Below are positions 1 to 28,970 of a stretch of DNA of 32,525 bases, in pieces. The notes beneath the pieces are model-generated. The model searched no databases, was not told the origin of the DNA, and saw nothing but the letters and a program-made list of their open reading frames with translations. The DNA comes from a virus (Duplodnaviria > Heunggongvirae > Uroviricota > Caudoviricetes), in the IMG/VR virus record IMGVR_UViG_651053023_000008. One strand, given 5' to 3'. Position numbers and translations under genes: made by a program. Within the stretch, counting starts at the first letter, position 1. Each line of letters opens with the position of its first letter.

Positions 1-1698
1 TTAAGGTGTGGGTTGTGCCTCTTTGGTTGAGGGTTGCGTCGTTGCTGACTTAACGGTCGGACGCGTCGCCGGAACATTGTCACACGGTTGCTCTTTCGGG
101 CAGATCAAATCCAGCATTTTCAGCGTCACGCCATTGGTCCAGCCAAAGCCATCCTGTAATGGATATTCGCCACCGCCGCCCTCCGTTCCGGTGGTGCTGA
201 CATCATATTTTTCCACCAGCTTTTTCTCCCGGTCATAGGTGTGCTGAACATTGGTCAGGAAGTGCCAGCTAATGTCCATCGCCACCTCTTTTTGCCCGTA
301 GTTTTGTAATCCTTCTGTCGCGACCCACTGTAACGGTGCCCAGCCATTTGGCGCATCCCATTGTTGCCCACTTTTCACCGACGTGGTGTTCAGGCCGCCG
401 GGTTGCAGCAGATGTGTTTTCGTCGCCGTCGCCATTTTGTTGGCGCGATCTTTCGCTGCCGCATTGACGTACAGCGGGAACAGGGCGGCCGCGGTTAACT
501 GATTGCGCACTTTATGACTTTTCAGGTCGTAATCGGCATACCAGCCTTGTTGATCGTTCCACAGGTATTTTTCGATCCCTTTTTGACGGGCATTTGCCAG
601 CGTTTCGTACTGGTTTGCCATCGCGTTATCTCCGGCAGCTTTGCTGGCGCGGGCGAGGATTTTTTCCATTTTAAACATCAGGCTGTTCAGATCGACCGGT
701 ACGATGCTGGTGGTGCGTAAGGTATTTAACTGCTGCGGGTTGTCCATCCAGCGCGAGCTGAAATCCCAGCCAGACGCAGCGGCAGAGCGCAGGTCGCGGT
801 AAATTTCAGTGGCAGGTCGATTCGGATTGCTTTTGGCGGTGGCAATATCTTCCACCCATGACTCTGGTCGTGGCGTATCGCGATCGTCCCAGTAGCGGTT
901 GAGAAGGGTACCATCCTGAAGTTTGACAACGCGTTTTTCCTGTTGTCCGGCTTGCAGGTTTTCAACACCGTCCATCCAGTAAGCATATTCTTTTTGCATT
1001 TGCGGCAGGTATTGCTTCAACGCGGCATCGCCTTCATGCTGCGCCAGTAACTCTACCATCAGGGCAAAGAAGGGCGGTTGCGAGCGGCTTAAATAGTAAC
1101 TGCGGTTGCCGTTGGGAATATGACCGTAAGTGTCTATTTCATGAGCAAAATTGGCCACCATATTCGCGACTTTATCCCAGTGACCGCTTTCGGCAAGTCC
1201 TAACATGGTGAAGTAACTGTCCCAGTAATATACCTCGCGAAAGCGTCCGCCCGGCACGACATAAGGTTCCGGCAGCGGTAACAGAGAATCCCATTTTTCG
1301 GTGTTTTCGGTAGAACGCGTTAATACCGGCCAAAGTCCGTCAATATGTTCGCGCAGTGACTGCCCCTCTGGCGGAACATATTTCTCGCCTTCTTTCGGCA
1401 GGGTGAAATTGACGTTAACGAAATGGCGCAGATCAAATCCGCTCTGGTTTTGCTGCATCCGATAATCAGCAAGGATCATCAGCGGATCGCTGTTCGGCAC
1501 GGCATCGGCAAAGGTTTTTTGGTCCGGAAAAAGTTTGGCGTTTTGCACATCATTAAACAGCGGCCCTAATAAAATATCAGGCGGCTGTGGTGTTACCGGT
1601 GTTTCTTCTGCCTGCACCGATAGCGCAGCGAAACACAAAAAGATACAGGCTGGAATTAACGCCATTTTTTGCGGGCGAGAAGGTGCGGGGGATTTCAT
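1..1698 (-). CDS. treA: periplasmic trehalase TreA (host gene)
   Basis: ORF 1..1701 (566 aa) with signal peptide ([20 protein letters not shown]) and family-37 trehalase length and sequence as I recall E. coli TreA. The first ORF codon is TTG per the sequence line; the second Met (ATG ending at 1698) is the likely start. Confidence 0.9.
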
Positions 1699-1826
1699 CA
1701 ATCATTCTCCTTTGGCGAAACCGAATAAAACGGTATTCAAGTATCAGAAAACCTTAGTTCAGGATCGCACTAGCTGCATGATCGAAATCTCATTCTGCGA
1801 ACTGTCAGGCATTTTAGAAAAGGGAA

Positions 1827-2010
1827 TGTATTGATTCACTTGAAGTACGAAAAAAACCGGGAGGACATTGGATTATTCGGGATTTGGCGGGATTAGATTT
1901 TGTGGGGCTTGCAAGCCTGTAGGACAGATTTTAGCCGTTACATCTTGAAACGCGAAAGATTGTTGGAAACAGCTTTTGATTCATTAAAGACACGAAAAGC
2001 AATTACTTCA
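1827..2010 (+). repeat. attL region with three candidate MuA end-binding sites (L1 about 1831-1853, L2 about 1944-1965, L3 about 1976-2000; approximate)
   Basis: Repeated ..TTCA..GAAG/AAAG..CGAAA(A/G) motifs (tgattcacttgaagtacgaaaaa; cttgaaacgcgaaagat; ttgattcattaaagacacgaaaag) resembling the MuA end-site consensus. Confidence 0.55.
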
Positions 2011-2165
2011 CGCATCATTTCAAGTACAGCTTCAAAAATGCTTCAAAAACGGTAACAACCAGGCTTTCAGCAAGTGATGTGTGTCAAAAATAATCATCAC
2101 TGTTTGGGTATCTTACATATGTAATTACCTGGAGTGAAGTTTATGTCTTAGCTATTACCTGGTTG

Positions 2166-2690
2166 TTATACAGCTTTCTTTACATCGTTTTCTCTTACAG
2201 GGAAATTATGTTCTTTGCCTTCATACTGAGACAAAATCTCTCTCACTTTTTCCGGTGGTAATGCCTGAAGAGTTTGCAGGGTTTTCTGTTGCTCCACAGT
2301 AATCCCTAATGCCTCTAATGCCTTATCTTTACTGACAATTGTAGGCATAAGTCCTTTAATCCCTGCTACACGAATGATCTCCACAGCTGCGGCCTGCTCA
2401 TCTGGTGTTAAGAAGCTCATTGCATAAATTAGCCTCTCATCAACTGTATGGGCGATTGATGTATGCACTGGTTTATCAGAAAGTGAGGCTCCTTTAATGG
2501 CCCTGCGTGTTTCTTCTGGCAGACTGTTGATGTGATACTCATAAGCGACACCTTTCCCACCGTGACGCTGACGTTTTACCCAATCTTCCGCCACAGCTTT
2601 CCTGGTAATGTTAGTCGCCAACTTTGGTACACCAGGCATCCCTTCCAGCTCTTTCGCATTAAACCATTCTTTGATTTCAAAAGACATCAT
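2166..2690 (-). CDS. c: Mu-type repressor (c-like)
   Basis: 174-aa ORF divergent from ner at the position of the Mu repressor. Its N-terminus ([34 protein letters not shown]) parallels the transposase N-terminus ([34 protein letters not shown]). Confidence 0.8.
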   Translation of the reverse strand: MMSFEIKEWFNAKELEGMPGVPKLATNITRKAVAEDWVKRQRHGGKGVAYEYHINSLPEETRRAIKGASLSDKPVHTSIAHTVDERLIYAMSFLTPDEQAAAVEIIRVAGIKGLMPTIVSKDKALEALGITVEQQKTLQTLQALPPEKVREILSQYEGKEHNFPVRENDVKKAV

Positions 2691-2875
2691 TTAAAATCCT
2701 AGTGATTTCAATAGAGACAAAATAAATTCATATAAAAATCATGCCGTTATATAAAATCATGGCAAATCATTTCAAATCACTATTGATTTGGAAGTGATTC
2801 CACACTACATTGCACGATATGCCGTGAGCTACTTTATAGCGTAGCTCACGGGGGAATCTGAAAGGATTACATGAA
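2691..2875. promoter_or_regulatory. operator and divergent promoter region between c and ner; candidate early promoter -35 TTGATT (2783-2788) and -10 TACATT (2806-2811)
   Basis: AT-rich intergenic region with many AAATCA/TGATTT half-site repeats; hexamers with 17-bp spacing upstream of ner. Confidence 0.5.
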
Positions 2876-3097
2876 ATGCATATGAATAAAAGAACTAACC
2901 GCCAAGATTGGCACAGAGCTGACATCGTTGCAGAGCTACGAAAACGCAATATGTCACTAGCTGAATTGGGAAGATCTAATCATCTTTCGTCTTCAACATT
3001 AAAAAATGCTTTGGATAAGAGATATCCGAAAGCGGAGAAAATCATTGCAGATGCACTGGGAATGACACCGCAAGATATTTGGCCGTCTCGATACTAG
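2876..3097 (+). CDS. ner: Ner-like DNA-binding regulator
   Basis: 73-aa ORF directly before the transposase with Ner-family motifs ([14 protein letters not shown]...LAELGR......STLKNAL...[24 protein letters not shown]). Confidence 0.85.
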
Positions 3098-3104
3098 GTG
3101 CGCT

Positions 3105-5093
3105 ATGAAAGAATGGTATACAGCAAAAGAGTTGCTCGGTTTGGCAGGTTTACCAAAGCAAGCCACTAACATTACACGTAAGGCACAAAGAGAAGGCTGG
3201 GAGTTCAGGCAGGTTGCAGGGACTAAAGGTGTATCATTTGAATTCAATATCAAATCATTCCCTGTCGCATTACGTGCTGAAATTCTGTTGCAACAAGGGA
3301 GAATTGAAACCAGTCAGGGGTATTTTGAAATCGCCCGCCCCACGCTGGAAGCCCATGATTATGATCGTGAGGCACTGTGGAGCAAATGGGATAACGCCAG
3401 CGATTCCCAGCGCAGACTTGCTGAAAAATGGTTGCCTGCGGTTCAGGCTGCAGACGAAATGCTGAACCAGGGGATTTCAACGAAAACGGCATTTGCGACC
3501 GTTGCAGGACATTACCAGGTCAGCGCATCCACTTTGCGAGACAAATATTACCAGGTACAGAAGTTTGCGAAGCCTGACTGGGCGGCTGCGCTTGTTGATG
3601 GACGTGGTGCATCCCGTCGCAACGTTCACAAAAGTGAATTTGACGAGGATGCCTGGCAGTTTCTGATTGCAGATTATCTGCGACCAGAAAAACCCGCCTT
3701 TCGCAAATGTTATGAGCGTCTGGAACTGGCAGCCCGCGAGCATGGCTGGAGTATTCCCTCCCGTGCCACGGCCTTTCGCCGGATTCAGCAACTGGACGAG
3801 GCAATGGTTGTTGCCTGCCGTGAAGGTGAACATGCACTGATGCATCTGATACCGGCACAGCAGCGAACTGTGGAACACCTGGACGCCATGCAGTGGATCA
3901 ACGGCGACGGTTATCTGCATAACGTCTTTGTACGCTGGTTTAACGGTGATGTGATCCGCCCGAAAACATGGTTCTGGCAGGATGTGAAAACCCGAAAAAT
4001 TCTGGGCTGGCGCTGCGATGTGAGCGAGAACATTGATTCAATTCGCCTCTCGTTCATGGATGTGGTGACACGCTACGGCATCCCGGAAGATTTTCACATC
4101 ACCATTGATAACACCCGTGGGGCAGCGAATAAATGGCTGACGGGGGGCGCGCCCAATCGTTACCGCTTTAAGGTGAAAGAGGACGATCCAAAGGGACTGT
4201 TTTTACTGATGGGCGCGAAAATGCACTGGACAAGCGTTGTTGCCGGTAAAGGCTGGGGCCAGGCAAAACCTGTTGAACGTGCTTTCGGTGTTGGTGGGCT
4301 TGAGGAATACGTTGATAAGCATCCGGCACTGGCTGGCGCATATACGGGGCCAAATCCGCAGGCAAAACCTGATAACTATGGCGACCGTGCTGTTGATGCA
4401 GAGCTGTTTCTGAAAACCCTTGCTGAAGGTGTGGCGATGTTCAATGCCAGAACAGGCCGTGAAACAGAAATGTGCGGGGGCAAACTCTCGTTTGATGATG
4501 TTTTCGAGCGTGAATACGCCAGAACGATTGTGCGTAAGCCAACCGAAGAACAAAAACGGATGCTGTTACTGCCTGCCGAAGCGGTGAACGTTTCACGCAA
4601 AGGCGAGTTTACGCTTAAAGTTGGCGGCTCCCTTAAAGGCGCGAAAAACGTTTATTACAACATGGCGTTAATGAATGCAGGCGTGAAAAAAGTTGTGGTC
4701 AGGTTTGATCCGCAGCAGCTACACAGCACAGTTTATTGCTACACCCTGGACGGTCGGTTTATCTGTGAAGCGGAATGTCTGGCACCTGTTGCATTTAATG
4801 ATGCTGCGGCAGGCCGTGAATATCGCCGCCGCCAGAAACAACTGAAATCTGCAACTAAAGCAGCCATTAAGGCGCAGAAACAAATGGACGCGCTGGAAGT
4901 TGCTGAACTGCTGCCGCAGATAGCCGAACCAGCAGCACCAGAATCAAGGGTTGTTGGTATTTTCCGGCCTGTGGGTAACACAGTACGGGTTAAATATCGC
5001 ACCCCCGATGATAAATACGAACCCGCTCGTGATGAATATCTGAATCAGTCACTGGATATTCTGGAACAGAAAAGACGTAAAAAAGCCATTTAA
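3105..5093 (+). CDS. A: Mu-type DDE transposase A
   Basis: 662 aa; N-terminal end and enhancer-binding domain, central catalytic core, C-terminal region, at the Mu A position; sequence closely matches MuA as I recall it. Confidence 0.95.
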
Positions 5094-5131
5094 TTAACGT
5101 TTAAACAAAATTTAATTACGAGGTTATTCAG

Positions 5132-6091
5132 ATGAATATTTCCGATATTCGCGCAGGACTGCGCACGCTTGTAGAAAATGGAGAAACCACGCTGACACGC
5201 ATCGCCAGTGAATCAGGCGTGGCCCTGAGCACAGTCAGTGGTTTTGTGAATGATAAATATAACGGCAACATGGAATCAGTCGGGCGCACACTGGAACGCT
5301 GGCTGGAAAACTATCACCGCGCAGAAGAACTGCCGGAACCCCCGCGTTTTGTGGAAACTGCAACAGCCCGTCAAATCTGGACAAGTATGCGTTTTGCTAA
5401 TCTGACCGGAACCATTGCTGTTATCTGCGGTAATCCAGGAGTGGGTAAAAGCGAAGCAGCCCGTGAATTTTGTCGCACTAATAATAATGTCTGGATGATC
5501 ACCATTGCGCCATCCCGTGCCAGTACGCTGGAATGTCTGACTGAACTTGCCGAAGAGTTGGGAATGAATAATGCACCATGTCGCAAAGGACCGCTTTCCC
5601 GTAACCTGCGTCGCCGCCTGAAAGGAACGCAGGGACTGGTCATTGTTGACGAAGCTGATCACCTTGACACCGAAGCGCTGGAAGAGCTCCGTCTGTTACA
5701 GGAGTCCGCCTGTATTGGTCTTGTTCTGATGGGGAATCACCGTGTTTATTCAAATATGACCGCTAATGGCGACAGAACAATTGAGTTTGCCCGTCTGTTT
5801 TCCCGTATTGCAAAGCGCACAGCAATTAATAAAACCAAAGAAGACGATGTAAACGCAATTGCGGATGCCTGGCAGATTACCGGGAAAAATGAACGGGAAT
5901 TATTACAGCAGATTGCACAAACGCCTGGTGCGCTCCGCATTATGAATCAAACGCTGCGCCTTGCTGTTATGAATGCCTTCGGTAAAGGCGAACGTGTTAA
6001 TGAGGATTATCTGCGTGAGGCTTACAAAGAGTTAGACCAGGACGTTGATGTTTCGATGCTGCTGGGTGTGCAAGGGGATGCTGAATCATGA
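5132..6091 (+). CDS. B: transposition ATPase and target-capture protein B
   Basis: 319 aa; Walker A motif GNPGVGKS; directly downstream of A. Confidence 0.9.
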
Positions 6092-6315
6092 TGTCACGGA
6101 ATATCAAAATGGCGACGGAAGTAAAGACCTGGTTACAGGAGCGCGGCAGCCACGTCAACGAATCCTGGCTGGGCGTGGCCCGCCCGGTGCTTGAAATTAC
6201 CTGCCCGCCACCGGAGCTGGTCAGAAACGCTGTCAGGATTATGGAGCATAAATCAGGGGTTGCCCGTTCCGTATGGACGGCCCGCCTTAATGGTTGCCAG
6301 ATTATCTGGCGTTAA
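6088..6315 (+). CDS. small early protein at the Mu kil position (Kil-like, unverified)
   Basis: 75-aa ORF; ATGA overlap with the B stop. Confidence 0.5.
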
Positions 6316-6347
6316 TAACGGCTTATTTATTTGTGAGGAATAACAAA

Positions 6348-6617
6348 ATGGCAAAAGTAATCTTTGAATTTAACAATACAAGAAATATTGAGTTTCAGGA
6401 AAATGGAGGTTTTGCCGTAAATATGAATGTGCGACTGGAAGAATCCTCACCTGAGGACCAGACCGGGCCACATGATGTAATGGCAGGCATCATCAAGAGC
6501 ATGGCTCCTGAAATCATTAAAAAAGCGACCGAGGATTTGTTGAAATCAGCCAGGGAGCTTGGGCTGGAAGCCGAAGGCGAGTTATTCCGGTATAACCCGG
6601 ATGCAGCTAAATATTAA
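6348..6617 (+). CDS. hypothetical early protein
   Basis: ATG 6348 preceded by a GAGGA ribosome-binding site; 89 aa. Confidence 0.5.
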   Translation: MAKVIFEFNNTRNIEFQENGGFAVNMNVRLEESSPEDQTGPHDVMAGIIKSMAPEIIKKATEDLLKSARELGLEAEGELFRYNPDAAKY

Positions 6618-6637
6618 TTCGCAAAGGAACGCTGACA

Positions 6638-7057
6638 ATGAAAGCCAAAATCAGAAACGAAATTCAGGCATTAATTCGGATTAAAGAGCGTAATAGCAAT
6701 GGTGGAGACTTGCGCGAATTTATTTGCGCGCGCGAAGTTGAGGGATATGGCGAAAAGACTTACCTGATTGCATTCGACCATTACAGCATTTGTGCGCGTT
6801 ATTGCGGGGAGGCGGTATTCCGCGCCATTACGTTTGGCAATGCCTTCAATGTGGATTTATGGGAATACGTCATGGACCGTGAATACATCAGCGCGTCAGA
6901 CCCGGACGCACGGGAGCAGTGGCAGAACATCTGGCGCGATTACCGGCAAATGGCGAAAGGCTGGACGCAGGGGACGTATTCTTCCCTTGCCCTGAAAGCG
7001 GTTCAGTTATCGCTGCGGCATGTTCCGTCAGTACGGTTTGAACTTGCGGTGCACTGA
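6638..7057 (+). CDS. hypothetical early protein
   Basis: 139-aa ORF in the co-oriented early operon. Confidence 0.5.
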   Translation: MKAKIRNEIQALIRIKERNSNGGDLREFICAREVEGYGEKTYLIAFDHYSICARYCGEAVFRAITFGNAFNVDLWEYVMDREYISASDPDAREQWQNIWRDYRQMAKGWTQGTYSSLALKAVQLSLRHVPSVRFELAVH

Positions 7058-7074
7058 TACAGGAGGGCGACATC

Positions 7075-7363
7075 ATGATACCCCCTCGTAAAAGATGGTC
7101 ACGTGAAGACCGGGAATTTATCGAAGCCAGTGTCGGGAAAATGACTGTTGAAGAAATGGCGAAAAAAACTGAACGTTGCCCCAACCGCCCTACAGGCACA
7201 TGCCAGAAGACACGGAATATCGTTGTGTGCATACCGGGTCAGTGAGCACGACAAATATTTGTGTCGTGAACTTTATAAAGAAGGGCTGGATATTCATGTC
7301 ATTACCCAAAAGATGGAATTAAGCAATCGTGCTGTATCCAGCATTGTATACAGCGAATATTAA
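7075..7363 (+). pseudogene. small HTH-like early gene split by a +1 frameshift in an A7 run (7162-7168)
   Basis: ATG 7075 with an AGGAGGG ribosome-binding site reads to a stop at 7245; ORF 7148..7363 continues in the next frame. Removing one A gives a single 95-aa product ...MTVEEMAKKLNVAPTALQAHARRHGISL.... Confidence 0.45.
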
Positions 7364-7383
7364 TTAACAGGAGCTTTATTTAT

Positions 7384-7908
7384 ATGGCTAAACCAGCAAA
7401 ACGAATCAAGAATGCAGCAGCGGCTTATGTTCCACAGTCCCGCGATGCCGTGGTATGTGATATCCGCCGGATTGGTGACCTGCAACGCGAAGCGGCACGA
7501 CTTGAAACGGAAATGAATGACGCTATCGCTGAAATTACAGAGAAATACGCCTCACAGATTGCGCCGCTAAAAACCAGTATCGAAACCCTTTCAAAAGGCG
7601 TTCAGGGATGGTGTGAAGCGAACCGTGACGAACTGACGAACGGCGGCAAGGTGAAGACGGCGAACCTGGTAACCGGCGATGTGTCATGGCGTCAGCGCCC
7701 ACCATCGGTAAGTATTCGCGGTGTGGATGCGGTGATGGAAACACTGGAGCGTCTTGGCCTGCAACGCTTTATTCGCACGAAACAGGAAATCAACAAGGAA
7801 GCGATTTTACTGGAACCGAAAGCGGTCGCAGGTGTTGCCGGAATTACAGTTAAATCAGGCATTGAAGATTTTTCTATTATTCCGTTTGAACAGGAAGCCG
7901 GTATTTAA
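7384..7908 (+). CDS. gam: Gam host-nuclease inhibitor (Mu Gam family)
   Basis: 174 aa, same length and sequence pattern as Mu Gam as I recall it. Confidence 0.9.
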   Translation: MAKPAKRIKNAAAAYVPQSRDAVVCDIRRIGDLQREAARLETEMNDAIAEITEKYASQIAPLKTSIETLSKGVQGWCEANRDELTNGGKVKTANLVTGDVSWRQRPPSVSIRGVDAVMETLERLGLQRFIRTKQEINKEAILLEPKAVAGVAGITVKSGIEDFSIIPFEQEAGI

Positions 7909-8006
7909 TATCACCATTAATATTTAATTAGTTCACTTTCTTTTAATTATGGCGCGATGCGTCAGGGGATTGCTCGCGCCTGAAACAGATTACTGAGGAA
8001 TAAAAA

Positions 8007-8546
8007 ATGGTTGATGCAAAAGTTCTGAACGGTGTCAGTACATTATTACGGGCTTACGGACGTCTGACCTGTGGCGTTCTGGCGGAAAAAATGAATATGC
8101 CACCTTCTTCAATGGTGTATTTCCTGCGTGATGCGGTTGATGCCGGAGTTCTCACTGAATGCAACGGATTTTATGACGTTCCGCGCCCTCGTCCGACGCC
8201 GCCAGTAAGACGAAACGCAACGGAGCACCCCGCTGTTGATGATGCTCAATGGTGCGCTTTCCGCCGCTCTTTGCCCTGGCTGGAAGGCAATGCCATTCCG
8301 GCACTGGCAAAAGAATTTGCGACAGGCGTACTGACCTGCGAGTCGGTTTACATCGTTGCTGAAGTGGATGACGAGATGTGCAAACAGGGGATGCCCCGTT
8401 TTGTGATGGCGTATATCGATATCCGACTGGGACGTTTTATTTGTGGCTCCAGTGGCTGGAATATCACCGACCACGTCCTGCGCTATCTCATTCTTGATTA
8501 TTCACCGGTTCCGGCGGCAACACAGGATGTCAGCGAGCATGGTTAA
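8007..8546 (+). CDS. hypothetical early protein with N-terminal winged-helix-like region
   Basis: 179-aa ORF; N-terminal LLRAYGRLTCGVLAEKMNMPPSSMVYFLRDAVDAGVL followed by a Pro-rich linker. Confidence 0.5.
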   Translation: MVDAKVLNGVSTLLRAYGRLTCGVLAEKMNMPPSSMVYFLRDAVDAGVLTECNGFYDVPRPRPTPPVRRNATEHPAVDDAQWCAFRRSLPWLEGNAIPALAKEFATGVLTCESVYIVAEVDDEMCKQGMPRFVMAYIDIRLGRFICGSSGWNITDHVLRYLILDYSPVPAATQDVSEHG

Positions 8547-8721
8547 GTCAATTGGCTTTGTCCTGCTGGTTGGTACTTGCGGGAATGATGCCTGTGATGC
8601 CATTCCGGTAACAGAAAAAATCTGGCCCACAGAACAGGCATGTATGCAGGTGATGGAGCGCATACAAAAACGTTATCCCAGTGAAATCTTTTATTGCGAA
8701 GAGGTATTAAGAAATGAATAA
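8539..8721 (+). CDS. small putative secreted protein or lipoprotein (moron)
   Basis: ATG overlaps the upstream stop. 60 aa; N-terminal hydrophobic segment ending ..LLVGTC (lipobox-like); GC content lower than the surrounding sequence. Confidence 0.4.
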   Translation: MVKSIGFVLLVGTCGNDACDAIPVTEKIWPTEQACMQVMERIQKRYPSEIFYCEEVLRNE

Positions 8722-9103
8722 CGCAGAGAAAAATGAAATTAAATCCGCATCCGCCAGCACCAGAAAGCATCTTCATGATTTTTATGTTGCCTATAACCAG
8801 TGGTTAAAAAATGGTGTACCAGAAACAGAGGGTGAAATATTTGTTCAATATTCAGGATTATGTACAAATGCTTGTCGTTATTTTGACGAAATCGGAGTGG
8901 ATACCGAAGATATATTAGAACAATTACGTGCAGATTTTATCGCGAACGAGTTGGATGAATTATTACCTTTCAATGAAAGTGGAACGCACTATCATGAGGA
9001 ATGCAGACTTGGCAGATGTCACCTGAATTCTGCTCGTGTGGCATGGGTCGAAAAACACTGCATTAAGGAGATGGGACATAATGAGCCGCACATCCCTGAT
9101 TAA
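8714..9103 (+). CDS. hypothetical protein (AT-rich moron)
   Basis: 129-aa ORF; visibly AT-rich compared with flanking phage genes; Cys and His rich C-terminal half. Confidence 0.5.
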   Translation: MNNAEKNEIKSASASTRKHLHDFYVAYNQWLKNGVPETEGEIFVQYSGLCTNACRYFDEIGVDTEDILEQLRADFIANELDELLPFNESGTHYHEECRLGRCHLNSARVAWVEKHCIKEMGHNEPHIPD

Positions 9104-9632
9104 ATTAATTCATGTCGCCCGTCGGGAATTGCAACTTGACGATGACACTTACCGCGCCTTTCTGGTGCAGTGCACGGGCAAAACCAGTTGCCGCGAGCTG
9201 TCCGTTGCACAACTGGAACGGGTGCTCGATGCCATGAAAGAGCGCGGTTTTAAGAAGCAGAAAAAACATCCCCGCCGTCGCTTTAAGGGGCATGTCACAC
9301 CACGCGAGAAGATTTACAAAATCTGGCAGCAGATGTTTCTTGATGGTTTCGTCTCCGATATCAGCGACGCCGCGCTGGACAAATACGTTGAACGCCTGAC
9401 GGCCAGACGTAATGGCGGTCAGGGTGTTTCCACGCTGGCCTGGTGTCACGGGGAATCGTTGCAGGTTGTGCTCGAAACGCTCAAACAGTGGCACATGCGC
9501 TGCATCCGTGAAGCCTTTGCCCGACATGGTGTGCCTTTACCTGTAAGCCCATCCGGGCGGGAACTGCGCGGCTATGATGCACTGACCAGTGCATATGCCC
9601 GCGCACGAAACAGCGGGAGAATTGCTGTATGA
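9081..9632 (+). CDS. gemA: GemA-like protein (Mu gp16 family)
   Basis: Internal ATG 9081 with an AAGGAG ribosome-binding site; 183 aa; position immediately upstream of mor; N-terminal LIHVARRELQLDDDTYRAFL motif. Confidence 0.65.
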   Translation: MSRTSLIKLIHVARRELQLDDDTYRAFLVQCTGKTSCRELSVAQLERVLDAMKERGFKKQKKHPRRRFKGHVTPREKIYKIWQQMFLDGFVSDISDAALDKYVERLTARRNGGQGVSTLAWCHGESLQVVLETLKQWHMRCIREAFARHGVPLPVSPSGRELRGYDALTSAYARARNSGRIAV

Positions 9633-10078
9633 AACAGATGAAAGAGCAGGATTTGTTCGAAGACCTTCGGGACGACAGCGTTCTGGAATATCTTCATGAT
9701 TACCAGGAAAACACCGCTTATCCGGCGTTACTTTCTGAACTGAACGCACTGCTGCGTAAAGAGCTGGCCCGGATTGGCGCAGACCCTGCCCATTCCCTTG
9801 AGCTGGTTGTGGCGATTTGTCGCCATATCGGCGGGATGCAGGTTTATGTTCCGAGGGGGAATATTCTGGAGAATCTTGTCCGGGATATGCGTATCTGGCG
9901 TGATTTTAACGGCCATAATATTCCTGAACTGGTTCAGCGTTACGGGGTGACGTATAAAACCGTCTACAAGGCCATCAAACGGATGCGACGTCTGGAGCGC
10001 AATAAATACCAGCCGGATTTGTTTTACCTCTCCCCGAACCTGCCTCACCCCGTTCGTCGTCCGCCACGACGCCCTTAA
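9629..10078 (+). CDS. mor: Mor/C-family transcriptional activator
   Basis: 149 aa with a Mor-family C-terminal HTH (VYVPRG...IWRDFNG.N..EL..RYGV....VYKAIKRMRR), located at the end of the early operon and followed by a terminator. Confidence 0.8.
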   Translation: MKQMKEQDLFEDLRDDSVLEYLHDYQENTAYPALLSELNALLRKELARIGADPAHSLELVVAICRHIGGMQVYVPRGNILENLVRDMRIWRDFNGHNIPELVQRYGVTYKTVYKAIKRMRRLERNKYQPDLFYLSPNLPHPVRRPPRRP

Positions 10079-10084
10079 TCAATG

Positions 10085-10108
10085 AAGCCGGTAAATCCGG
10101 CTTTTTTT
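10085..10108 (+). terminator. rho-independent terminator after mor (stem AGCCGG, loop TAAAT, stem CCGGCT, T7)
   Basis: Perfect 6-bp stem hairpin followed by seven T, 7 nt after the mor stop. Confidence 0.7.
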
Positions 10109-10122
10109 ATGCCTCCGGCACC

Positions 10123-10752
10123 ATGAAGCAGACCACGTTTAACTCTGCTTCACAGGTGCTTTTTATGGAAAATCTAAAATTATATCTGGCCTTTGAGCGT
10201 GCGCTGAATTTTATTCTGCGTCCTGATATCGAAGGCGTCTATGTCAATGACCCCACTGACCGTGGCGGAGAAACCAGGTACGGCATCTCTGACCGCCGCG
10301 ACGGTGTGATTGACGGCAAAACTGACGTCAACGGTGATGGTAAACCCGACACCCGCATTAAGGATTTTACCCGCGAACAGGTTGCGCAGATTTACTGGCG
10401 CGATTACTGGCTGCCTGCCGGGTGTGACCAGTGGCCTGACAGAGTGGCGCTTTTTGTGTTCGATGCGGCGGTTCAGCATGGTGTTAAAAAAGCCATCAAA
10501 CTTTTGCAGGAAGCCACTGATATCAATGCCGATGGCATCATCGGCCCGCGCACCCGCAGGGCCGTGAACCTGGCTGACCAGAACTGGTTGCTGACCCGCT
10601 GTATTGTCCGTCGTTCCCGCTTTTATGCCGAAATCATCAAATCAAAACCCGCCCAGGGCAAATACCTGAACGGCTGGTTTAACCGCATGGAAAAACTGAC
10701 CGACGCCTGTCTGGAAATCATCGACAACGCGCCGTCCACCACGCGGGGGTGA
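10123..10752 (+). CDS. endolysin, GH108-like N-terminal domain plus peptidoglycan-binding C-terminal domain
   Basis: EGVYVNDPTDRGGETRYGI motif typical of glycoside hydrolase family 108; no N-terminal transmembrane segment. Alternative start at ATG 10165 (MENLKL) has a better ribosome-binding site. Confidence 0.75.
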   Translation: MKQTTFNSASQVLFMENLKLYLAFERALNFILRPDIEGVYVNDPTDRGGETRYGISDRRDGVIDGKTDVNGDGKPDTRIKDFTREQVAQIYWRDYWLPAGCDQWPDRVALFVFDAAVQHGVKKAIKLLQEATDINADGIIGPRTRRAVNLADQNWLLTRCIVRRSRFYAEIIKSKPAQGKYLNGWFNRMEKLTDACLEIIDNAPSTTRG

Positions 10753-10753
10753 T

Positions 10754-11389
10754 ATGGGCAAAGGCTGGGATGCCTCACTGAAAGCCGGGCGGCGTGACCG
10801 CCTGCGTCAGGAGGTTCTGCACCGCATGGCCGGAGGTCCGCCCCCGAAACCGCTGGACTATACCGGCCATGACGGCACACACGCCAGCTACTACATGCGT
10901 GGCTGGAACTCCGTGGATACACGGGACATTTTCTGGCAGTGCCAGAAGTACAGGGAAAAATTCAATGTGGAAAAAGGTAATGAACAAAATTTTAAACTGT
11001 GTGACTGGCTGCTTTGTTCCCGACTGATGAGAACCCCATGGCCGCTGGCCGGACTGACACTCTGCATGTTCATCATCAGCATGTTATGTGGCTGGCGATC
11101 GTTCGTGTTGATGTTGTTGTCCTTTGCCGGGGTGGTGTTGTTTTCATACAGCGCAAGCCTCGGGAATGTGCCATTTCGCCTGCTGCCTGAGGTCCGTTAC
11201 CGGGCTTTTGGTCGCCACATCATCGTGTGGTCATGGGTGGTCTGGGCGCTGGGATATTTCTGCTGCGTCTTCAGCACGCTGATGATGGTGTCACCGGTGC
11301 ATCCGGTGTTCTGGCTGTGTGGTGGCTGTTGCGGCGGTCTGCTCTGTCTTCAGCGTTATCTGTATGGAGGTTTCCCGTGGATCCGTTAA
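10754..11389 (+). CDS. putative lysis-cassette membrane protein (soluble N-terminal part plus about four predicted TM helices); holin candidate
   Basis: 211-aa ORF immediately after the endolysin; the C-terminal 120 aa are strongly hydrophobic. Confidence 0.4.
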   Translation: MGKGWDASLKAGRRDRLRQEVLHRMAGGPPPKPLDYTGHDGTHASYYMRGWNSVDTRDIFWQCQKYREKFNVEKGNEQNFKLCDWLLCSRLMRTPWPLAGLTLCMFIISMLCGWRSFVLMLLSFAGVVLFSYSASLGNVPFRLLPEVRYRAFGRHIIVWSWVVWALGYFCCVFSTLMMVSPVHPVFWLCGGCCGGLLCLQRYLYGGFPWIR

Positions 11390-11985
11390 CCCTTTCAGGC
11401 ATCGCCTCTGTTCTGCTGAAAGCCGGGCCGGGGCTGATTCGTTCCGTCGGGCGCTGGTTTGGTGGCAGTACATCTGCCGCCGCTGACTCGGTGGCCGGTA
11501 TGGTGGAAAGCGTCCGGGAAAGCCTGCCGGTGGCTGAACAGCAACGCATTCTGGAACAAAAACTGGTGATGCTGTCACCGGAGCAACTGATGCAGCTGGA
11601 AACCCTGAAAGTTCAGCTGCAACAGCTGGAGGTGGAGCGGCAGAAGCTGGTGCTGGCTGACCAGCAGGCCGCACACCACGAACAGCAGGAAACCATCCGC
11701 AATGGTGACAACGCCACGGACAGCTATGTGCGCCAGACACGCCCGCTGCTGGCCCGCCTTTCCTGTTACAGCAGTCTGGCCTATGTGCTGTTGCTCTCCT
11801 GCGGCCAGATTGCCGGAGCCATTGCCGGTGCCAGAGGTATCACGCTGCATATGCCATCACCGGACTGGGATATCACGCTGATGTTGCTTACCCCGGCGCT
11901 GGGCTATCTCGGTGTAAGAACCCTTGACGGCTTTGCCCGTTACAGCAAATCAAGCCGTCACAAAATGTCTGCGGGGCCGAAATGA
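11377..11985 (+). CDS. putative membrane protein with central coiled coil and C-terminal TM segments (lysis-associated)
   Basis: GTG 11377 preceded by a GGAGG ribosome-binding site at 11366-11370; Leu/Gln-rich heptad region; two hydrophobic segments near the C-terminus. Confidence 0.5.
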   Translation: MDPLTLSGIASVLLKAGPGLIRSVGRWFGGSTSAAADSVAGMVESVRESLPVAEQQRILEQKLVMLSPEQLMQLETLKVQLQQLEVERQKLVLADQQAAHHEQQETIRNGDNATDSYVRQTRPLLARLSCYSSLAYVLLLSCGQIAGAIAGARGITLHMPSPDWDITLMLLTPALGYLGVRTLDGFARYSKSSRHKMSAGPK

Positions 11986-19749: not shown

Positions 19750-19832
19750 CCCGTCATCCGTAATCTGTTGTAACCCGCAATGACTGGCTGATTAGCTGTA
19801 TCGGCACCAACCTGTCACCGCACCCGGCGTGG

Positions 19833-21288: not shown

Positions 21289-23122
21289 CCGTCTCAGCAC
21301 GGAAATCATGATCAACCTTGCCGGGAACCTGACCGCCAAAGCCCGGCAATACGGCGCAAATATGTCGCAGTTCGCCCGGAATCATCAGAAGGCCATGCGC
21401 CTTGTCAAAGCCACAACGGAGGCCGCAGGACGCGGCCTTGATACGCTGGGTAACCGCTACACGGCGATGATTGCCGGGTTCGGTGGTGGTATGACCCTTA
21501 AAGGCCTGACAGATTTTGATGCACAAATCCGCCGTGCGGGTACAAATGCAAAACTGACCGATGAGCAGGTATCCCGTTTAAGAAAAAACATCCGGGAAAC
21601 AGCCAGAATGTCAGACATTCGCCTCAGTGCGCAGGTTTTACTGGAAGGCCAGGATGCACTGTATGGCCTGACAGGTAAGCCGGAATTTGTTGAAAAAAAT
21701 ATCCGCAATCAGGGGCTGGCCACGCAGGCATTCGGGACTGCGCCACAGGATGTCGCGGCACTGATGGCACAGATGTCCGAAAAACAGATTGAAGATCCTC
21801 AGGAAGTTGAAGACATGTTCGACCGCTTCTACCACCAGTTTTCCATTGGTTCGGTTGGTGTGGATCAACTGGCGCGCGTATCAGCAAAACTGTTTTCGAT
21901 TTATACCGGTGGTGGCAAAGAGGCGATGGCCCAGTTGGGGGCACTTGAGCAGATGCTGGCGAAAACAACCGGTTCTGCAGATGAAGCGGTAACCGCGCTG
22001 AACAGTATCTGGAGTGAAGTCACCCGAAAAGACAACATCAAGTTTCTGAAAAGAAACGGTGTTGATGTGCTTGATCCAGTCACAGGGAAACCCCGTCTGC
22101 CCTATGACGTGATCAGAGACGTTGTCAGGCGGGCAAAATTTAATGAGCAGAATTTGCAGGATGTTTTCGGGGACACCTCCATGCGGGGATTAAGGGCGCT
22201 GTCCAGTGAAGAAGCCCTTCAGTTAACAGAAAAAATGATTTACGCCCCGGTTGAATCCGGTGCCATGAAAAAAGCCGCGGAGAAAAACGCCCAGAGTTTT
22301 CAGTCTGCGATGCAGTCCCTGAAGAATGAATATGAGGTTTTTGCTGAAAAAAATCTGGCAAAACCCGTTCAGGACCTGGCGGATGCGCTCAACAGCGTGG
22401 ACCAGAACACCGTCCAGAACTGGTTGCAGGTCGGTAAATATATGGCGATTGCTGTGGGCGGCATTATCGCCATCCGAAAAACGTACCAGTTAGGTAAAAC
22501 CCTCCACGACATCATGAATCCCAAAGGGAAAGGCAAAGGAATACCCGGTGGCATTACAGATGTTTTCGGCTCCGGTGTGATGCCGGTTTATGTGGTTAAT
22601 ATGGGCAGTGGCGGGATGAATGGTAATACCGGCGGTCTGCCGGATACACCAGATTCATCGCGCAATCCCCGCAATCCTCGGGGGCCGGGTAACCGTGGAG
22701 GAAAGGCAGGTAAAGGCGCTGGCATCATTGCCGGTGCTCTGGAGTTTTACGATTTTCTGACCACACAATACGCCCTGCCGGGTGAGGTTGACAGTCTCAC
22801 TAAATCCGTTGCCGGTGATGCCAGCGCCAGCCCGCGGGAGCGCGAGTTCGCGCAACAGAGTCAGGACAACCAGAAAGCGCTCGAGTCCGTCTGGCGTAAG
22901 GTAACGGACTGGTTTGACTCGCTGAACGGGAAGAACATCGGCGGGATGCCGTCATGGGGTGGAATGCAACCCTCGCAGCTTGCACCGTTTCTTTCTCAAC
23001 AATTGCAGGGGGAAATCCGCGTGGTGGTGGAAGGTGACGCCCGCGTGAAAAGTGTCAGAGTGGATCAACCCGGCGTCAGACTCAGTGCGCAGGCTGGCGT
23101 CACCAGCGTGGAGCAAGGGTAA
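21275..23122 (+). CDS. tail tape measure protein
   Basis: 615 aa; helical with a Gly-rich hydrophobic segment; preceded by the frameshifted chaperone. Confidence 0.75.
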   Translation: MATGNRLSTEIMINLAGNLTAKARQYGANMSQFARNHQKAMRLVKATTEAAGRGLDTLGNRYTAMIAGFGGGMTLKGLTDFDAQIRRAGTNAKLTDEQVSRLRKNIRETARMSDIRLSAQVLLEGQDALYGLTGKPEFVEKNIRNQGLATQAFGTAPQDVAALMAQMSEKQIEDPQEVEDMFDRFYHQFSIGSVGVDQLARVSAKLFSIYTGGGKEAMAQLGALEQMLAKTTGSADEAVTALNSIWSEVTRKDNIKFLKRNGVDVLDPVTGKPRLPYDVIRDVVRRAKFNEQNLQDVFGDTSMRGLRALSSEEALQLTEKMIYAPVESGAMKKAAEKNAQSFQSAMQSLKNEYEVFAEKNLAKPVQDLADALNSVDQNTVQNWLQVGKYMAIAVGGIIAIRKTYQLGKTLHDIMNPKGKGKGIPGGITDVFGSGVMPVYVVNMGSGGMNGNTGGLPDTPDSSRNPRNPRGPGNRGGKAGKGAGIIAGALEFYDFLTTQYALPGEVDSLTKSVAGDASASPREREFAQQSQDNQKALESVWRKVTDWFDSLNGKNIGGMPSWGGMQPSQLAPFLSQQLQGEIRVVVEGDARVKSVRVDQPGVRLSAQAGVTSVEQG

Positions 23123-24396
23123 TGACAACAGGCAATGGCAAATGGGACGGGCTGCGCGACGCCTCGTTTCGCGGCGTTCCCTTCTTTCTGGTGGATACAG
23201 AAGGCACCGGTGGCCGCAGGGCTATTCCCCGTGCTTACCCCCGGCGTGAAACCGCCTGGACGGATGATAACGGGGCCGTTCCCGGTCAACAACAGATTAA
23301 CGCAAAGCTGCCAGGTAAAAACTTCCGGGATGATTTAAACGCCCTTTTAGACGCGCTCAATACCCCAGGCCCCGGCGAGCTTATCCACCCGTGGTTCGGG
23401 ATACAGACCGTACAGGTTGGCAAGGTCACTCATCGCCTCAGCACGGAGGAAGACGGCATTGCGTATGTCACCTTTGAAGTGTTTGAGGCAGGCGAGCGCC
23501 TGTTCCCGTCTGCGGCGGATAACACGCAGCAGGAAGTGCTAACGGGCATTGATGCGGTGAAAGCCGCCATTGACGATGGCGACTGGTTCGGCGCACTCGA
23601 CGGGCTGGGTGAGATGGCCGACAGCTTTCTGGCCGATATGGAAAACCTTGTGGCTAACCTGCCCACGCTACCGGCAGCACTGAATCAGTGGATGGACAGG
23701 CTGAACCATTTTAAGGAGATGGCCGGAACCATCATTGCCACGCCGGGGCGTCTGGTCAGTGAGTTGTCCTCGTTCATCGACGGCGTGGTTGATCTGGTGA
23801 CGGAACCACCCGAAGCACTCGCGGTTTACACGACATTACGCAACCAGTGGGTCGGAGAACGCGCCCGACAGGTTGCCACCGGCGCACTGCCGGAAGATAT
23901 CACCGTGAAGCCAGGCAGCGTGGCAGACGGCGAAATCGGCTTTGCCATCGGTCTGTCACCGGGTTATCAGCCGGTATCTGACAGCCTGCAAAAGAACATT
24001 GATGACTTCCGCCAGGTGGTTGTGCTGGAAACCCTGCTGGGACAGGCAAATGCCGTGGCCTCGATGACGTTCGATACCAGTGATGCGGCATTATCTGCTG
24101 GTGACACGCTGGCGGCTGAACTGCATGAGCAGGCGGTGGCGGCGGTGGAAAATAACCAGCGGGCATTATGGCGAACGCTGCGCGATTTACGGCAGGCCGT
24201 GATTACGGATGCCCGCGAGCGTGCCGCCCGTCTGCCGGAAACCCGACAGGTGACGCTGACCACAACCACATCTGCCGCATTGCTGGCATGGCGCGAACAT
24301 GGTGACACAAGCCGACGGGATGAAATCGTGCAGCGTAACCGCCTGCGCCATCCGTCATTCATCCTGCCAACGCAACCAGTGGAGATTACCGACTGA
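23122..24396 (+). CDS. P: DNA circularisation protein-like tail protein (Mu P family)
   Basis: 424 aa; N-terminal region resembles the Mu gp43 N-terminal domain; position after the tape measure. Confidence 0.65.
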   Translation: MTTGNGKWDGLRDASFRGVPFFLVDTEGTGGRRAIPRAYPRRETAWTDDNGAVPGQQQINAKLPGKNFRDDLNALLDALNTPGPGELIHPWFGIQTVQVGKVTHRLSTEEDGIAYVTFEVFEAGERLFPSAADNTQQEVLTGIDAVKAAIDDGDWFGALDGLGEMADSFLADMENLVANLPTLPAALNQWMDRLNHFKEMAGTIIATPGRLVSELSSFIDGVVDLVTEPPEALAVYTTLRNQWVGERARQVATGALPEDITVKPGSVADGEIGFAIGLSPGYQPVSDSLQKNIDDFRQVVVLETLLGQANAVASMTFDTSDAALSAGDTLAAELHEQAVAAVENNQRALWRTLRDLRQAVITDARERAARLPETRQVTLTTTTSAALLAWREHGDTSRRDEIVQRNRLRHPSFILPTQPVEITD

Positions 24397-25467
24397 TGGA
24401 ATCCGTGATTCTTACCGTTGACGGCAAATTGTGGGAAGGCTGGACGGAAATGTCCGTCAGCCGTTCCCTGAAGGCGATTGCCGGTGAGTTTGATCTCAGT
24501 GTGACAACCCGCTGGTCAGCGGCGGCACCGCGCGTGATACGTGAGGGGCAACCCTGCACGGTCAGGCTGGGTGCGGATACCGTGCTGACAGGGTATATCG
24601 ATGATTTTATCCCCAGCTATGACGCAGATAACGTGGAGATTCGCGTCATGGGGCGCGACAAAAACCGGCGACCTGGTGGACTGCTCTGTGGTGCATTCAT
24701 CCGGGAAATGGAAAGGCGTGCGGCTGGAACAGGTAGCGGCTGATGTCTGCCGCCCGTTCGGGATAGCCGTCATCACGGAAACCCCGACCGGGGAGGCGTT
24801 TGCGTCCGTTGTTCTGGAACAGGGTGAAACGGGCTTTGAACTGCTCGACCGGCTGGCAAAACAGCGCGGCGTTCTGCTGACGTCTGACGGCGCAGGTAAC
24901 CTGATTATCACCCGCGCCTCTTCCGTTCGCGCGGGCGTGTCACTGGTGCTGGGGAAAAATATCCTCGCCGCCCGTGGGCGCTTCAGCTGGCGGGAGCGTA
25001 ACAGCCAGTACATCATCAAGGGCACCACCAGTGCCGGTGGCAAACTGTGGGACAGCCAGCCTGCCTCGATGGTGGGTGGTCGCCAGTACATCACCGAAGA
25101 CCCGGAAATTAACCGTTACCGCCCGCGCATTCTGGTCAATGAAGACAGCCTGACCGTGGGCGGGGCCAGCATTCGCGGGGAATGGTACAAAGCCCGGATG
25201 CTGGGGGAATCCCGCACGACGGAAATCACGGTGGCAGGCTGGCGCGAACAGGGCGACAGCGGCCCGCTGTGGCAGACCAACCGCCTTGTCGATATCGACG
25301 ACAGCATTCAGAACCTGAAAACCACCTGGCTGATATCCGGGGTGACCTGGACGGATGGCGCACAGGGGCGGATGACGGTTCTGGCGCTGGTTCCGCCTGA
25401 ATCACTGGATATGCCGGAAATGAAAGCGAAGACGAAGAAAACAAAGGCGGTGGCCACATGGGATTAA
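24396..25467 (+). pseudogene. baseplate hub protein (Mu Q-like) with a +1 frameshift in an A5 run (24660-24664)
   Basis: ORFs 24396..24743 and 24601..25467 join into one 357-aa product (..VMGRDKTGDLVDCSVV..) if one A is removed. Confidence 0.6.
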
Positions 25468-25994: not shown

Positions 25995-26443
25995 CGACCG
26001 GAATCCGCTGGAATAATACTCTCTCACGGGGTGACATCACCGTCACCCATAACGGCCTCTCACTGGATGAGGGGCTGGTCACTCAGGTTCTTATCTGCCT
26101 TTTCACTGATGCCCGTGCTGATGACGATGATGTCATTCCAGATGGTTCCGGCGACCCGCGCGGCTGGCCGGGCGACACGTACAGCGATTTTTCGTGGGGT
26201 TCCCGCCTGTGGCTGCTTGAGCGCGAAAAACTGACGGAAGATGTCCGCCTGCGCGTGGAGGATTACGCGCGACTGTCCATGCAACCGCTGCTGCGGGCCG
26301 GTTACGCCCGTAACGCCACCGTCACGGCCAGAATCATCGTCCCTGACCGTATTGCCTTTCAGGTGGTGTTAACCCGCCCGGACAAAACCACGCTCACAAT
26401 CGAAATCACCCGCCGATGGGAGGCCACCATTAATGCCGTATGA
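25991..26443 (+). CDS. baseplate protein (Mu gp46-like)
   Basis: 150 aa, translationally coupled between the spike and J-like genes. Confidence 0.55.
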   Translation: MTTGIRWNNTLSRGDITVTHNGLSLDEGLVTQVLICLFTDARADDDDVIPDGSGDPRGWPGDTYSDFSWGSRLWLLEREKLTEDVRLRVEDYARLSMQPLLRAGYARNATVTARIIVPDRIAFQVVLTRPDKTTLTIEITRRWEATINAV

Positions 26444-27510
26444 AATCCCCACGCTGGGCAAACTGATTGCCGACGGCGAAAAAGATATTGCGTATGAACT
26501 CGGCCTGCAAAAGCTGCCGCCTGTCAGTGTTGAGCAGGCGCTGAATGTGTCATTCAGCAGTCAGGTCCGGGATTTATACGACCATCAGAGCTGGATCAAG
26601 GACCAGATAATTCCGTCCACTACGTCTGATGATGAAACCATTATCAAAAACAGCAACGTATGAAGGGGTTATCCGCAAGCAGGCCACCTTTGCCAGCGGG
26701 CCGGTGACCTTCACCAGTCAGTCCCCCATTCCGGCAGAAACCCGGATGCAGTCCGACACGAATCAGGTGTATCAGGTACTCACATCCGGCGAGGTACAGG
26801 ACGGCGAGGTCACTGTCATCGTGCAGGCTGAAGAAGCCGGTGTGGCGGGCAATCTTGCTGCCGGTGCCGTGCTGACCCTGTTATCCCCGCTACCCGGAAC
26901 GGGCAGCACAGGCGCGGTGACTGAAAGTGGCATCACCGGTGGCGCAGACATCGAATCCATCGCAGAGCTGCTGGACCGTCTGCTGTATGTGCGCCGCAAT
27001 CCCCCGGTGGGCGGTGCACTGCATGATTACGTCATCTGGGCGCGTGAAGTGCCGGGTGTCAGCCGCGCGTGGGCATGGGATGCGTGGCACGGCCCCGGCA
27101 CGGTCGGGCTGGCATGGCTTTATGATGACCGTGAAGACATTATCCCCACACGGGACGACCTGAAGACAATGGAGCAGTATCTGTTCTGCCACAAACACCC
27201 TGCCACCGGCGTGATGGTGGGCAAACCGGGCGGCATCGAGGTCTGGCCGGTGCAGGTCAGGCTGAAGAAGCTCGACCTGTCCATCCGTCTGACACCGGAC
27301 AGCCAGGCGAACAGGAACGCCGTCCGGGCAAACCTGACCGCATTGCAGAAAACGCTGGCCCCCGGTCAGATGCTGCCGGTGTCCTCGCTGCGCACGGCCA
27401 TCGGTATGACGTCCGGTATCACGGATTACTTCCTCAACATCGGGGAGGACACCACCAGTGATGTGGATGAGCTTATCACCATCGGGGAGGTGACATGGCT
27501 CACAGCGTGA
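26433..27510 (+). pseudogene. baseplate J-like protein (Mu gp47-like) with a +1 frameshift in an A5 run (26646-26650)
   Basis: ORFs 26433..26663 and 26629..27510 join into one 359-aa product (..DDETIIKTATYEGVIRKQATFASG..) if one A is removed. Confidence 0.6.
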
Positions 27511-28082: not shown

Positions 28083-28970
28083 ATGTTTCATGTGGATAAT
28101 CCGACGGGTGTGCCAGTGATGCCACCTGTCGCGGCTGAATTAAGCAAAACAACGCTTTATTTTACCGAAGGCGGGAACGGTATTCCGCCCACTTATCCGG
28201 GGCCGGACTGGTTTAATATTATTCAGTCTGAACTGCTGGAAATTCTCCGGCAGGCAAATATCAAACCGGATAAAAACACAACCGACCAGATTATGACAGC
28301 GCTGAAAAAAACTGTTTATTACGAACAGTGGTTCAGCCGGAGCTATTGCCGGATTAACCGGTCAGAATAATACGTTCCCGTATTTTACGGCGAAGACACA
28401 ATGGCATTAACGCCGCTCAGTGCTTTTGTGCGCGGTATTCTCGGGAAAAACACAGCCGGTGAAATTATCGACGCGCTTTTATTACGTGACACGGTAAATA
28501 AAGCTAATAGTGCTGTACCGAATACCCGCAGGGTCAACGGCATGGCTCTGTCTTCGGATATCACCATCAGCAACATCAGCGGCAACGCCGGAACGGCAAC
28601 CCGACTTCAGACGGCCCGCAGGATTAACAATGTGCTGTTTGATGGCAGCCGCGATATCACGATTTCTGCGGGAATGTCACAAACTGAAGGTGACAACCGT
28701 TACCAGCAAAAAAACACGGCGTCAAAAGCCGGTAATGGCTGGTTTAAGGACACGTCCACCGGGGTGATTATTCAGTGGGGGTATCTCGGCAATGCCAGTG
28801 CCGGGCTGACGTTTCCGATATCATTTCCGTCAGCATGTACCAGCATCACTATTACCAACGCATACACCCGTGCTGATTACTCTATTTCCCTGAAATCGTT
28901 ATCAGCAGCAGGTGCGACATTCAACAGCGAGAATAACGGCGTTATGTACTGGACAGCGATAGGGTATTAA
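28083..28970 (+). pseudogene. tail fibre gene (S-like) interrupted by two compensating indels (extra A in the A7 run 28305-28311; likely missing G at 28389-28390)
   Basis: Conserved fibre N-terminus (MFHVDNPTGVPVMPPVAAELSKTTLYFTEGGNGIPP). The fibre motif GLTGQNNTFPYFT is encoded in frame +1 between the two ORFs; the C-terminal ORF 28401..28970 continues with MALTPLSAFVRGILGK. Confidence 0.55.

Follow-up and report, generated by a model that had tools for sequence, protein, structure and literature searches.

The ORFs in the semi-essential early region of bacteriophage Mu are mostly uncharacterised (PMC3325207, PMC3820752), and Mu deleted for the whole region still lysogenises (PMC3325207). 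One of them encodes gp9 (Mup09, old name E8; NP_050613.1), which in Mu, D108 and SfMu falls in PHROG 323, "transcriptional regulator, D5-like". The 32,525-nt stretch of DNA analysed here, referred to as the window, consists of host DNA (positions 1-1826) ending in treA (periplasmic trehalase; Pfam E=1e-179), followed by a Mu-like prophage adjoining treA, with the Mu left end TGTATTGATTCACTTGAAGTACGAAAAAAACC beginning at 1827. In its early (Pe) operon, flanked by the gp8 homologue and gam and in complete synteny with Mu and SfMu, the prophage carries a frameshifted (pseudogene) allele of the Mu gp9/E8 family (Table 1). The position and the predicted two-HTH architecture are those of gp9 in Mu, D108 and SfMu, but the window allele has A7 rather than A6 or GA5, encodes only the first 31 native residues, and carries Thr77 in place of Ala.

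The initial annotation of this locus had described two ORFs overlapping at an A7 run, which one A fewer would fuse into a single 95-aa protein. The exact AAAAAAA is present in the sequence, and removal of one A reproduced the fusion, identical to the protein quoted there; with an A6 run the gp9 copy would encode 95 aa. The 56-aa ORF is in frame 1 and the 71-aa ORF in frame 2, and bases 7169-7360 of the latter encode native residues 32-95, comprising the putative recognition helix of the first HTH and all of the second. The extra A thus interrupts what in the gp9 family is a single open frame of 95-99 codons. The AGGAGG upstream of the ATG is conserved among the closest prophages (alignment A1). 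No convincing Shine-Dalgarno sequence was found in the sequence before the TTG at 7148, and the downstream part of gp9 is probably untranslated.

Table 1. Coordinates of the gp9 locus, its early-operon neighbours and other lesions of the prophage (positions within the window)
Feature	Positions	Strand	Basis or remarks
c	2166-2690	minus	early operon; ner next
A	3105-5093		early operon
MuB (B)	5132-6091		early operon; followed by kil and an 89-aa ORF
gp8 homologue	6638-7057		directly before gp9
Shine-Dalgarno AGGAGG	7061-7066	+	read from sequence; 8 nt upstream of gp9 start codon
Whole gp9 (Mup09/E8) homologue, frameshifted allele	7075-7363	+	tblastn, PHROG 323, synteny
N-terminal ORF, 56 aa, ATG	7075-7245	+	31 native residues (helices 1 and 2 of the first HTH), then 25 out-of-frame residues and stop
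Downstream ORF, 71 aa from TTG, +1 frame	7148-7363	+	
A7 run, frameshift site	7162-7168	+	alignments A1, A2; one A more than A6/GA5 intact alleles
gam	7384-7908		directly after gp9
T4-to-T5	~10160		just upstream of lysozyme start
Two ORFs overlapping by ~160 nt	10754-11389 and 11227-11985		
A4-to-A3	~10994		private versus other A7 carriers
G4-to-G5	~13074		private versus other A7 carriers
G4-to-G5	~17776		private
Deletion of ~2.9 kb	19766-19779		versus 9 related prophages
Sheath remnant ORF, 197 aa	19833-20426		
T2-to-T1	~20705		near 3' end of tail-tube gene; 115 aa versus 118 aa
gpP-like baseplate gene, split	24396-24743 and 24601-25467		A4-to-A5 at ~24660, derived versus 9/9 comparators; 357 aa elsewhere
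Baseplate J/gp47, split	26433-26663 and 26629-27510		A4-to-A5 at ~26646, derived versus 9/9 comparators; 358 aa elsewhere
Tail-fibre gene, broken	28083-28370 and 28401-28970		A6-to-A7 at 28305-28311, then C2-to-C1 at ~28388 (83 nt on); both called against STEC346 alone

When the fused protein was compared with gp9 of Mu, D108 and SfMu by tblastn, identity was 86-90% at 100% coverage (E 1e-48 to 4e-51); with five Yersinia Mu-type phages included, full-length matches were obtained at 83-90% identity. PHROG 323 matched residues 4-94 (E=1.2e-26). By sequence similarity the fused ORF is a homologue of Mu gp9, and the matches to gp9 and PHROG 323 exclude a chance pair of ORFs. An AlphaFold model of gp9 (24 homologues, pLDDT 79.5) contains two three-helix bundles joined by a linker, with helices at residues 10-19, 25-32 and 36-45 in the first and 57-68, 73-80 and 84-93 in the second. 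Pfam HTH matches fall on residues 22-49, all below the gathering score (the best being RWP-RK at 20 bits and HTH_Tnp_1 at 19 bits), and the best Foldseek matches in the PDB are bipartite HTH domains, none at E 0.001 or better. The top PDB match, the Tc3/mariner-type bipartite HTH of 1u78, likewise consists of two linked three-helix HTH bundles, but the likeness is weak (E=0.04, TM about 0.4, 15% identity) and concerns the fold only, with no homology claimed. Intact gp9 is predicted from the model to be a two-HTH (bipartite) DNA-binding protein. The "HTH-like" label of the initial annotation is therefore reasonable at the level of the fold, with Pfam support below threshold, and is not proven. 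Conservation across the family is highest in the C-terminal HTH. The frame is lost after residue 31, where helix 2 of the first HTH ends and the putative recognition helix is about to begin.

In alignment A1 the window's A7 stands against A6 in six relatives and GA5 in Mu, and all seven relatives have single intact ORFs. An A6 or GA5 run together with one protein of 95-99 aa was found in 14/14 Mu-type GenBank phage records, in five E. coli prophages, in 46 of the 48 gp9 loci recovered by an unbiased pattern scan of IMG/VR (27 GA5, 19 A6, 1 A7 and 1 A5; 46 in frame), and in all 17 true gp9 loci (9 GA5, 8 A6; all in frame) kept from 42 metagenome pattern matches, about 25 of which were chance matches. 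Each of these 14 records aligns colinearly with the fused protein from end to end. A pattern scan of genome contigs gave only chance matches in unrelated taxa, none of which aligned to gp9. A protein search returned homologues of 95-99 aa in E. coli, E. albertii, Salmonella and Citrobacter; more distant homologues have no run, with AEKL, AKEL or AKHL instead. Intact alleles are under purifying selection, with dN/dS of about 0.17-0.3 in the more diverged pairs, and such low values indicate that the single 95-aa frame is the selected frame. Since the homologues are intact single ORFs with A6 or GA5, the split is, from these alignments, derived, and is not the organisation of the gp9 family. The comparison with homologues had been proposed in the initial annotation, where two separate short proteins were expected if the fusion was mistaken; single proteins of 95-99 aa were found.

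The A7 allele is heritable and shared. At least 11 contigs, drawn from independent assemblies, encode exactly the truncated 56-aa protein of the window, and the carrier set comprises k-mer assemblies of four Logan runs (SRR18572853, SRR18572800, SRR18572793 and SRR18572839), four NCBI assemblies of differing contiguity (GCA_036681295.1, GCA_002516985.1, GCA_002231075.1 and GCA_047262285.1, the last with the product in two different prophages) and one IMG/VR contig. All of them have A7, and their gp9 DNA is 99.4-100% identical to that of the window. The host genes flanking these prophages are btuR-like, ydhT, the eut operon and an HSP70-like region, and treA in the window, giving at least five insertion sites; the different flanks indicate that the allele was carried through transposition or lysogenisation. 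On one 70-kb Logan contig (SRR18572853; 20 kb recovered), all called Mu genes except gp9 are full length (c, ner, A, B, kil, gam, gemA, mor, lysis, terminase and portal genes); the recovered stretch ends in an F-like gene, the tail and baseplate half lying outside it.

Several features of the carriers concern recombination and mosaicism. The two Mu-like prophages of E. coli GCA_047262285.1 have different c-ner-A-B modules, one with a 195-aa HTH_3-type repressor and a 695-aa transposase, the other with a 174-aa Mu-type repressor and a 662-aa transposase, and their gp9 A7 segments are identical over 320/320 nt. These sequences suggest that a stretch of the early region was exchanged by recombination between the co-resident prophages. 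The IMG/VR contig, of 10,722 bp, is 99.98% identical to window positions 1-10722 and begins at the same base, so the window probably comes from that E. coli genome or a sister of it, of the UMNF18 type (porcine ETEC) to judge by exact protein matches. Window segments 10967-11378, 21477-22355 and 28468-30991 gave no alignment to STEC346, a pattern that indicates mosaic replacement of modules, namely lysis-region ORFs, the central tape-measure gene and the tail-fibre/assembly region.

The gp9 run has been struck repeatedly. Two other gp9 haplotypes gained the extra A independently, as A7 on contigs L018-L020 from three assemblies and as GA6 in the Mu-type haplotype of L021; a fourth haplotype (P0031) has an A8 allele with a 32-aa product ending in ...AKKN, and an A5 allele occurs in IMG/VR (L046). 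The independent +1A events, with the A8 and A5 alleles, mark the run as a slipped-strand mutational hotspot. In L046 an extra A about 60 nt upstream of the A5 compensates for it, with about 20 codons between the two read out of frame; the N-terminus of P0021, MIPLVKDGHVKTGNLSKPVSGK..., is the +1-frame reading of the same DNA, which is in frame again before MTVEE. At residue 77 the window allele has Thr where 23/23 aligned homologues have Ala. Another A7 carrier (L014) retains the ancestral bases, so the Thr77 change arose after the frameshift; it would fit drift after inactivation of gp9, a small hint that rests on only two changes.

Similar lesions are seen in neighbouring early genes. The gp7-like and gp8-like genes are flagged "frameshifted" in several complete E. 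coli genomes (L008 8427-8697 in STEC346, L004 739-1159 and L007 740-1158), and the STEC346 lesion is at an A7 run where the window has GGAAAATGG. From these flags, homopolymer frameshifts appear to be common throughout the semi-essential region of Mu-like prophages.

The late genes of the window prophage are damaged as well. As a result of the deletion of about 2.9 kb, the sequence just past the major head gene runs straight into the part of the tail sheath gene that encodes its C-terminus; the gp36-like, gp436/virion-morphogenesis and DUF2635 genes are gone, together with about 60% of the sheath. The 197-aa sheath remnant is annotated twice in E. coli UMNF18 and is also found in Logan contigs, with a one-residue variant on five further contigs; this recurrence indicates that the deletion is real and the prophage tail-defective. 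The truncated baseplate products are known only from single RefSeq entries (WP_244422674, WP_244422676 and WP_244422677), and the two baseplate splits could be either real decay or homopolymer sequencing errors. The 95-aa tail-fibre product is AEJ56152.1 of E. coli UMNF18. So many homopolymer indels suggest either that the source assembly is error-prone or that the prophage is decaying.

Were the seventh A a sequencing or assembly error, the true sequence would be A6 and the gene intact in the organism. Several other private one-base homopolymer indels distinguish the window from nine comparators, and its truncated late-gene products match only entries of E. coli UMNF18, a genome reportedly sequenced by 454 pyrosequencing, a method prone to homopolymer errors. 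However, the gp9 A7 is the one indel common to every carrier in the Logan k-mer, NCBI and IMG/VR data, and the other carriers lack the private indels of the window, so the A7 is not an artefact even if the source assembly of the window is error-prone. An identical error across independent data sets and platforms is very unlikely, and we rejected this reading, which we hold to be exceedingly improbable, because the identical allele occurs in many independent assemblies. The initial annotation had favoured mutation or sequencing error; mutation stands, and error falls on the contigs and insertion sites counted above. Programmed recoding would instead yield regulated full-length gp9 from the A7 allele, by transcriptional slippage or +1 ribosomal frameshifting, giving short and long products. 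The two frames meet exactly at the homopolymer, tRNA-Lys could re-pair from AAA to AAA perfectly in the +1 frame (AAA-AAA-A), the allele persists in several prophages, and there are precedents with longer runs, such as 11 A in C. rodentium tssM (PMC4256274) and 9A in IS elements and dnaX (PMC1088944). Yet the split is not conserved: 63 of the 65 loci from IMG/VR and the metagenomes keep the frame, the split alleles represent identical haplotypes of recent origin, and the run itself is missing from the more distant homologues. According to PMC6260861, slippage of E. coli RNA polymerase is detectable from at least 7 T and A runs must be longer still, which places A7 below the detectable length; genome-wide selection against runs appears at about 9 nt (PMC1088944), and A7 also falls short of the 8-9 or more A/T, approximately, needed for efficient slippage in bacteria (PMC1088944, PMC6260861). 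The initial annotation had rightly called the run short in this respect. Folding of the RNA at 7110-7240 gave less structure than in shuffled controls (z=+1.7). The 15 nt preceding the run contain no SD-like stimulator (GGAGG or AGGGGG), and ACU, the codon in the A site of the 0 frame, is neither stop nor rare; among the features of prfB-type +1 frameshifting, P-site re-pairing is present and a slow A site and an SD-like stimulator are absent. The frame would be restored by loss of one A in the mRNA or by a +1 shift, with EEMAKKLNVAPTALQAHAR as the trans-frame junction peptide of the restored gp9, a -1 shift leading to AAC UGA (stop). Programmed slippage or frameshifting was rejected on the unconserved split, the absent RNA structure and the short run, and we regard it as highly improbable; the slippage-regulated early gene that the initial annotation had kept in reserve finds no support.

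The run could also be thought of as a phase-variable contingency locus, switched ON and OFF by replication slippage during replicative transposition, each state being useful somewhere, for example where gp9 is costly or sensed by host defence. Variants A5, A6, A7, A8, GA5 and GA6 occur among close relatives and do switch the frame, +1 events recur in at least three haplotypes, and the tract is in the 5' third of the ORF. Against this, typical phase-variable tracts are longer than A6 or A7, only about 3% of the IMG/VR and metagenome loci are out of frame, and the run is a by-product of Lys-Lys codons, other homologues having non-run codons there. An exact A6 counterpart of the window haplotype gave no match in a collection of 15 billion proteins, so no ON/OFF pair was seen within the haplotype, where both states at appreciable frequency would be expected of such a locus. 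We judge this switch very improbable. A wider version, in which the Lys-Lys run acts either as a switch (OFF in A7, GA6 and A8, returning to ON by slippage) or as a leak through +1 slippage, with OFF favoured in some hosts because gp9 would be costly or sensed there, is very improbable too. Least probable of all the readings weighed is that the locus makes two functional small proteins, a 56-aa N-terminal peptide and a 71-aa C-terminal HTH protein from the TTG. Both ORFs are open, the 71-aa sequence (P0020) is annotated "gp9 (Protein E8)" in E. coli UMNF18, and it contains the HTH that is best conserved in the family; but the TTG lies inside the upstream ORF and has no good Shine-Dalgarno sequence, the last 25 residues of the 56-aa product are out-of-frame sequence, and intact alleles are selected as one frame. 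A search for contigs encoding the 71-aa ORF returned none. We rejected two independent small genes on the ground that a two-ORF arrangement is not the natural one in any homologue.

Very probably the locus holds a loss-of-function allele of the Mu gp9/E8 homologue that arose naturally by gain of one A (+1A), is heritable and has recurred. Slipped-strand mispairing as the DNA was replicated would have turned the A6 of the two Lys codons (AAA-AAA) into A7. A ribosome starting at the usual ATG would then lose the frame past residue 31 and reach a stop after 25 foreign residues, so that neither the recognition helix of the first HTH nor any of the second HTH would be made, save for a trace arising from spontaneous transcriptional or ribosomal +1 slips. 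A low percentage or trace of full-length gp9 from such slips is possible but unproven, and some full-length product may be made from the A7 allele; we infer that the broken allele gives no functional gp9. The lesion would be tolerated by the phage because gp9 belongs to the dispensable semi-essential early region of Mu; dispensability is documented for that region as a block, and by extension gp9 itself would be dispensable. Transposition, lysogenisation and recombination may then have passed the allele on and spread it among E. coli Mu-like prophages. That one identical A7 haplotype is so widespread could mean that the OFF state is advantageous and the loss adaptive rather than neutral.

The finding is an ordinary one and has little weight for biology at large. 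It does show cleanly how a frameshift allele can be tolerated in an accessory gene of a phage: loss of Mu gp9/E8 in nature does not stop prophage spread. The A-run is a recurrent mutational hotspot. For annotation, the 56-aa and 71-aa ORFs are to be treated as one frameshifted gp9 pseudogene. The predicted two-HTH DNA binder is a small lead for work on the uncharacterised semi-essential region of Mu.

Two kinds of known system offer themselves for comparison. In slippage genes (Thermus dnaX with A9, Shigella mxiE with T9, C. rodentium tssM with A11, and IS elements with A9 or A8), overlapping ORFs are joined at a homopolymeric run, as the two gp9 ORFs would be; in contrast to these genes, the gp9 run is only 7 nt long, the split is not conserved, no stimulatory structure accompanies it, and the ancestral state is in frame. 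The homopolymer frameshift pseudogenes that PGAP flags in prophages likewise arise from a one-base insertion in a short A-run of a non-essential accessory gene. Unlike those, the gp9 allele of the window is common to many prophages and insertion sites, and its site has been struck independently elsewhere.
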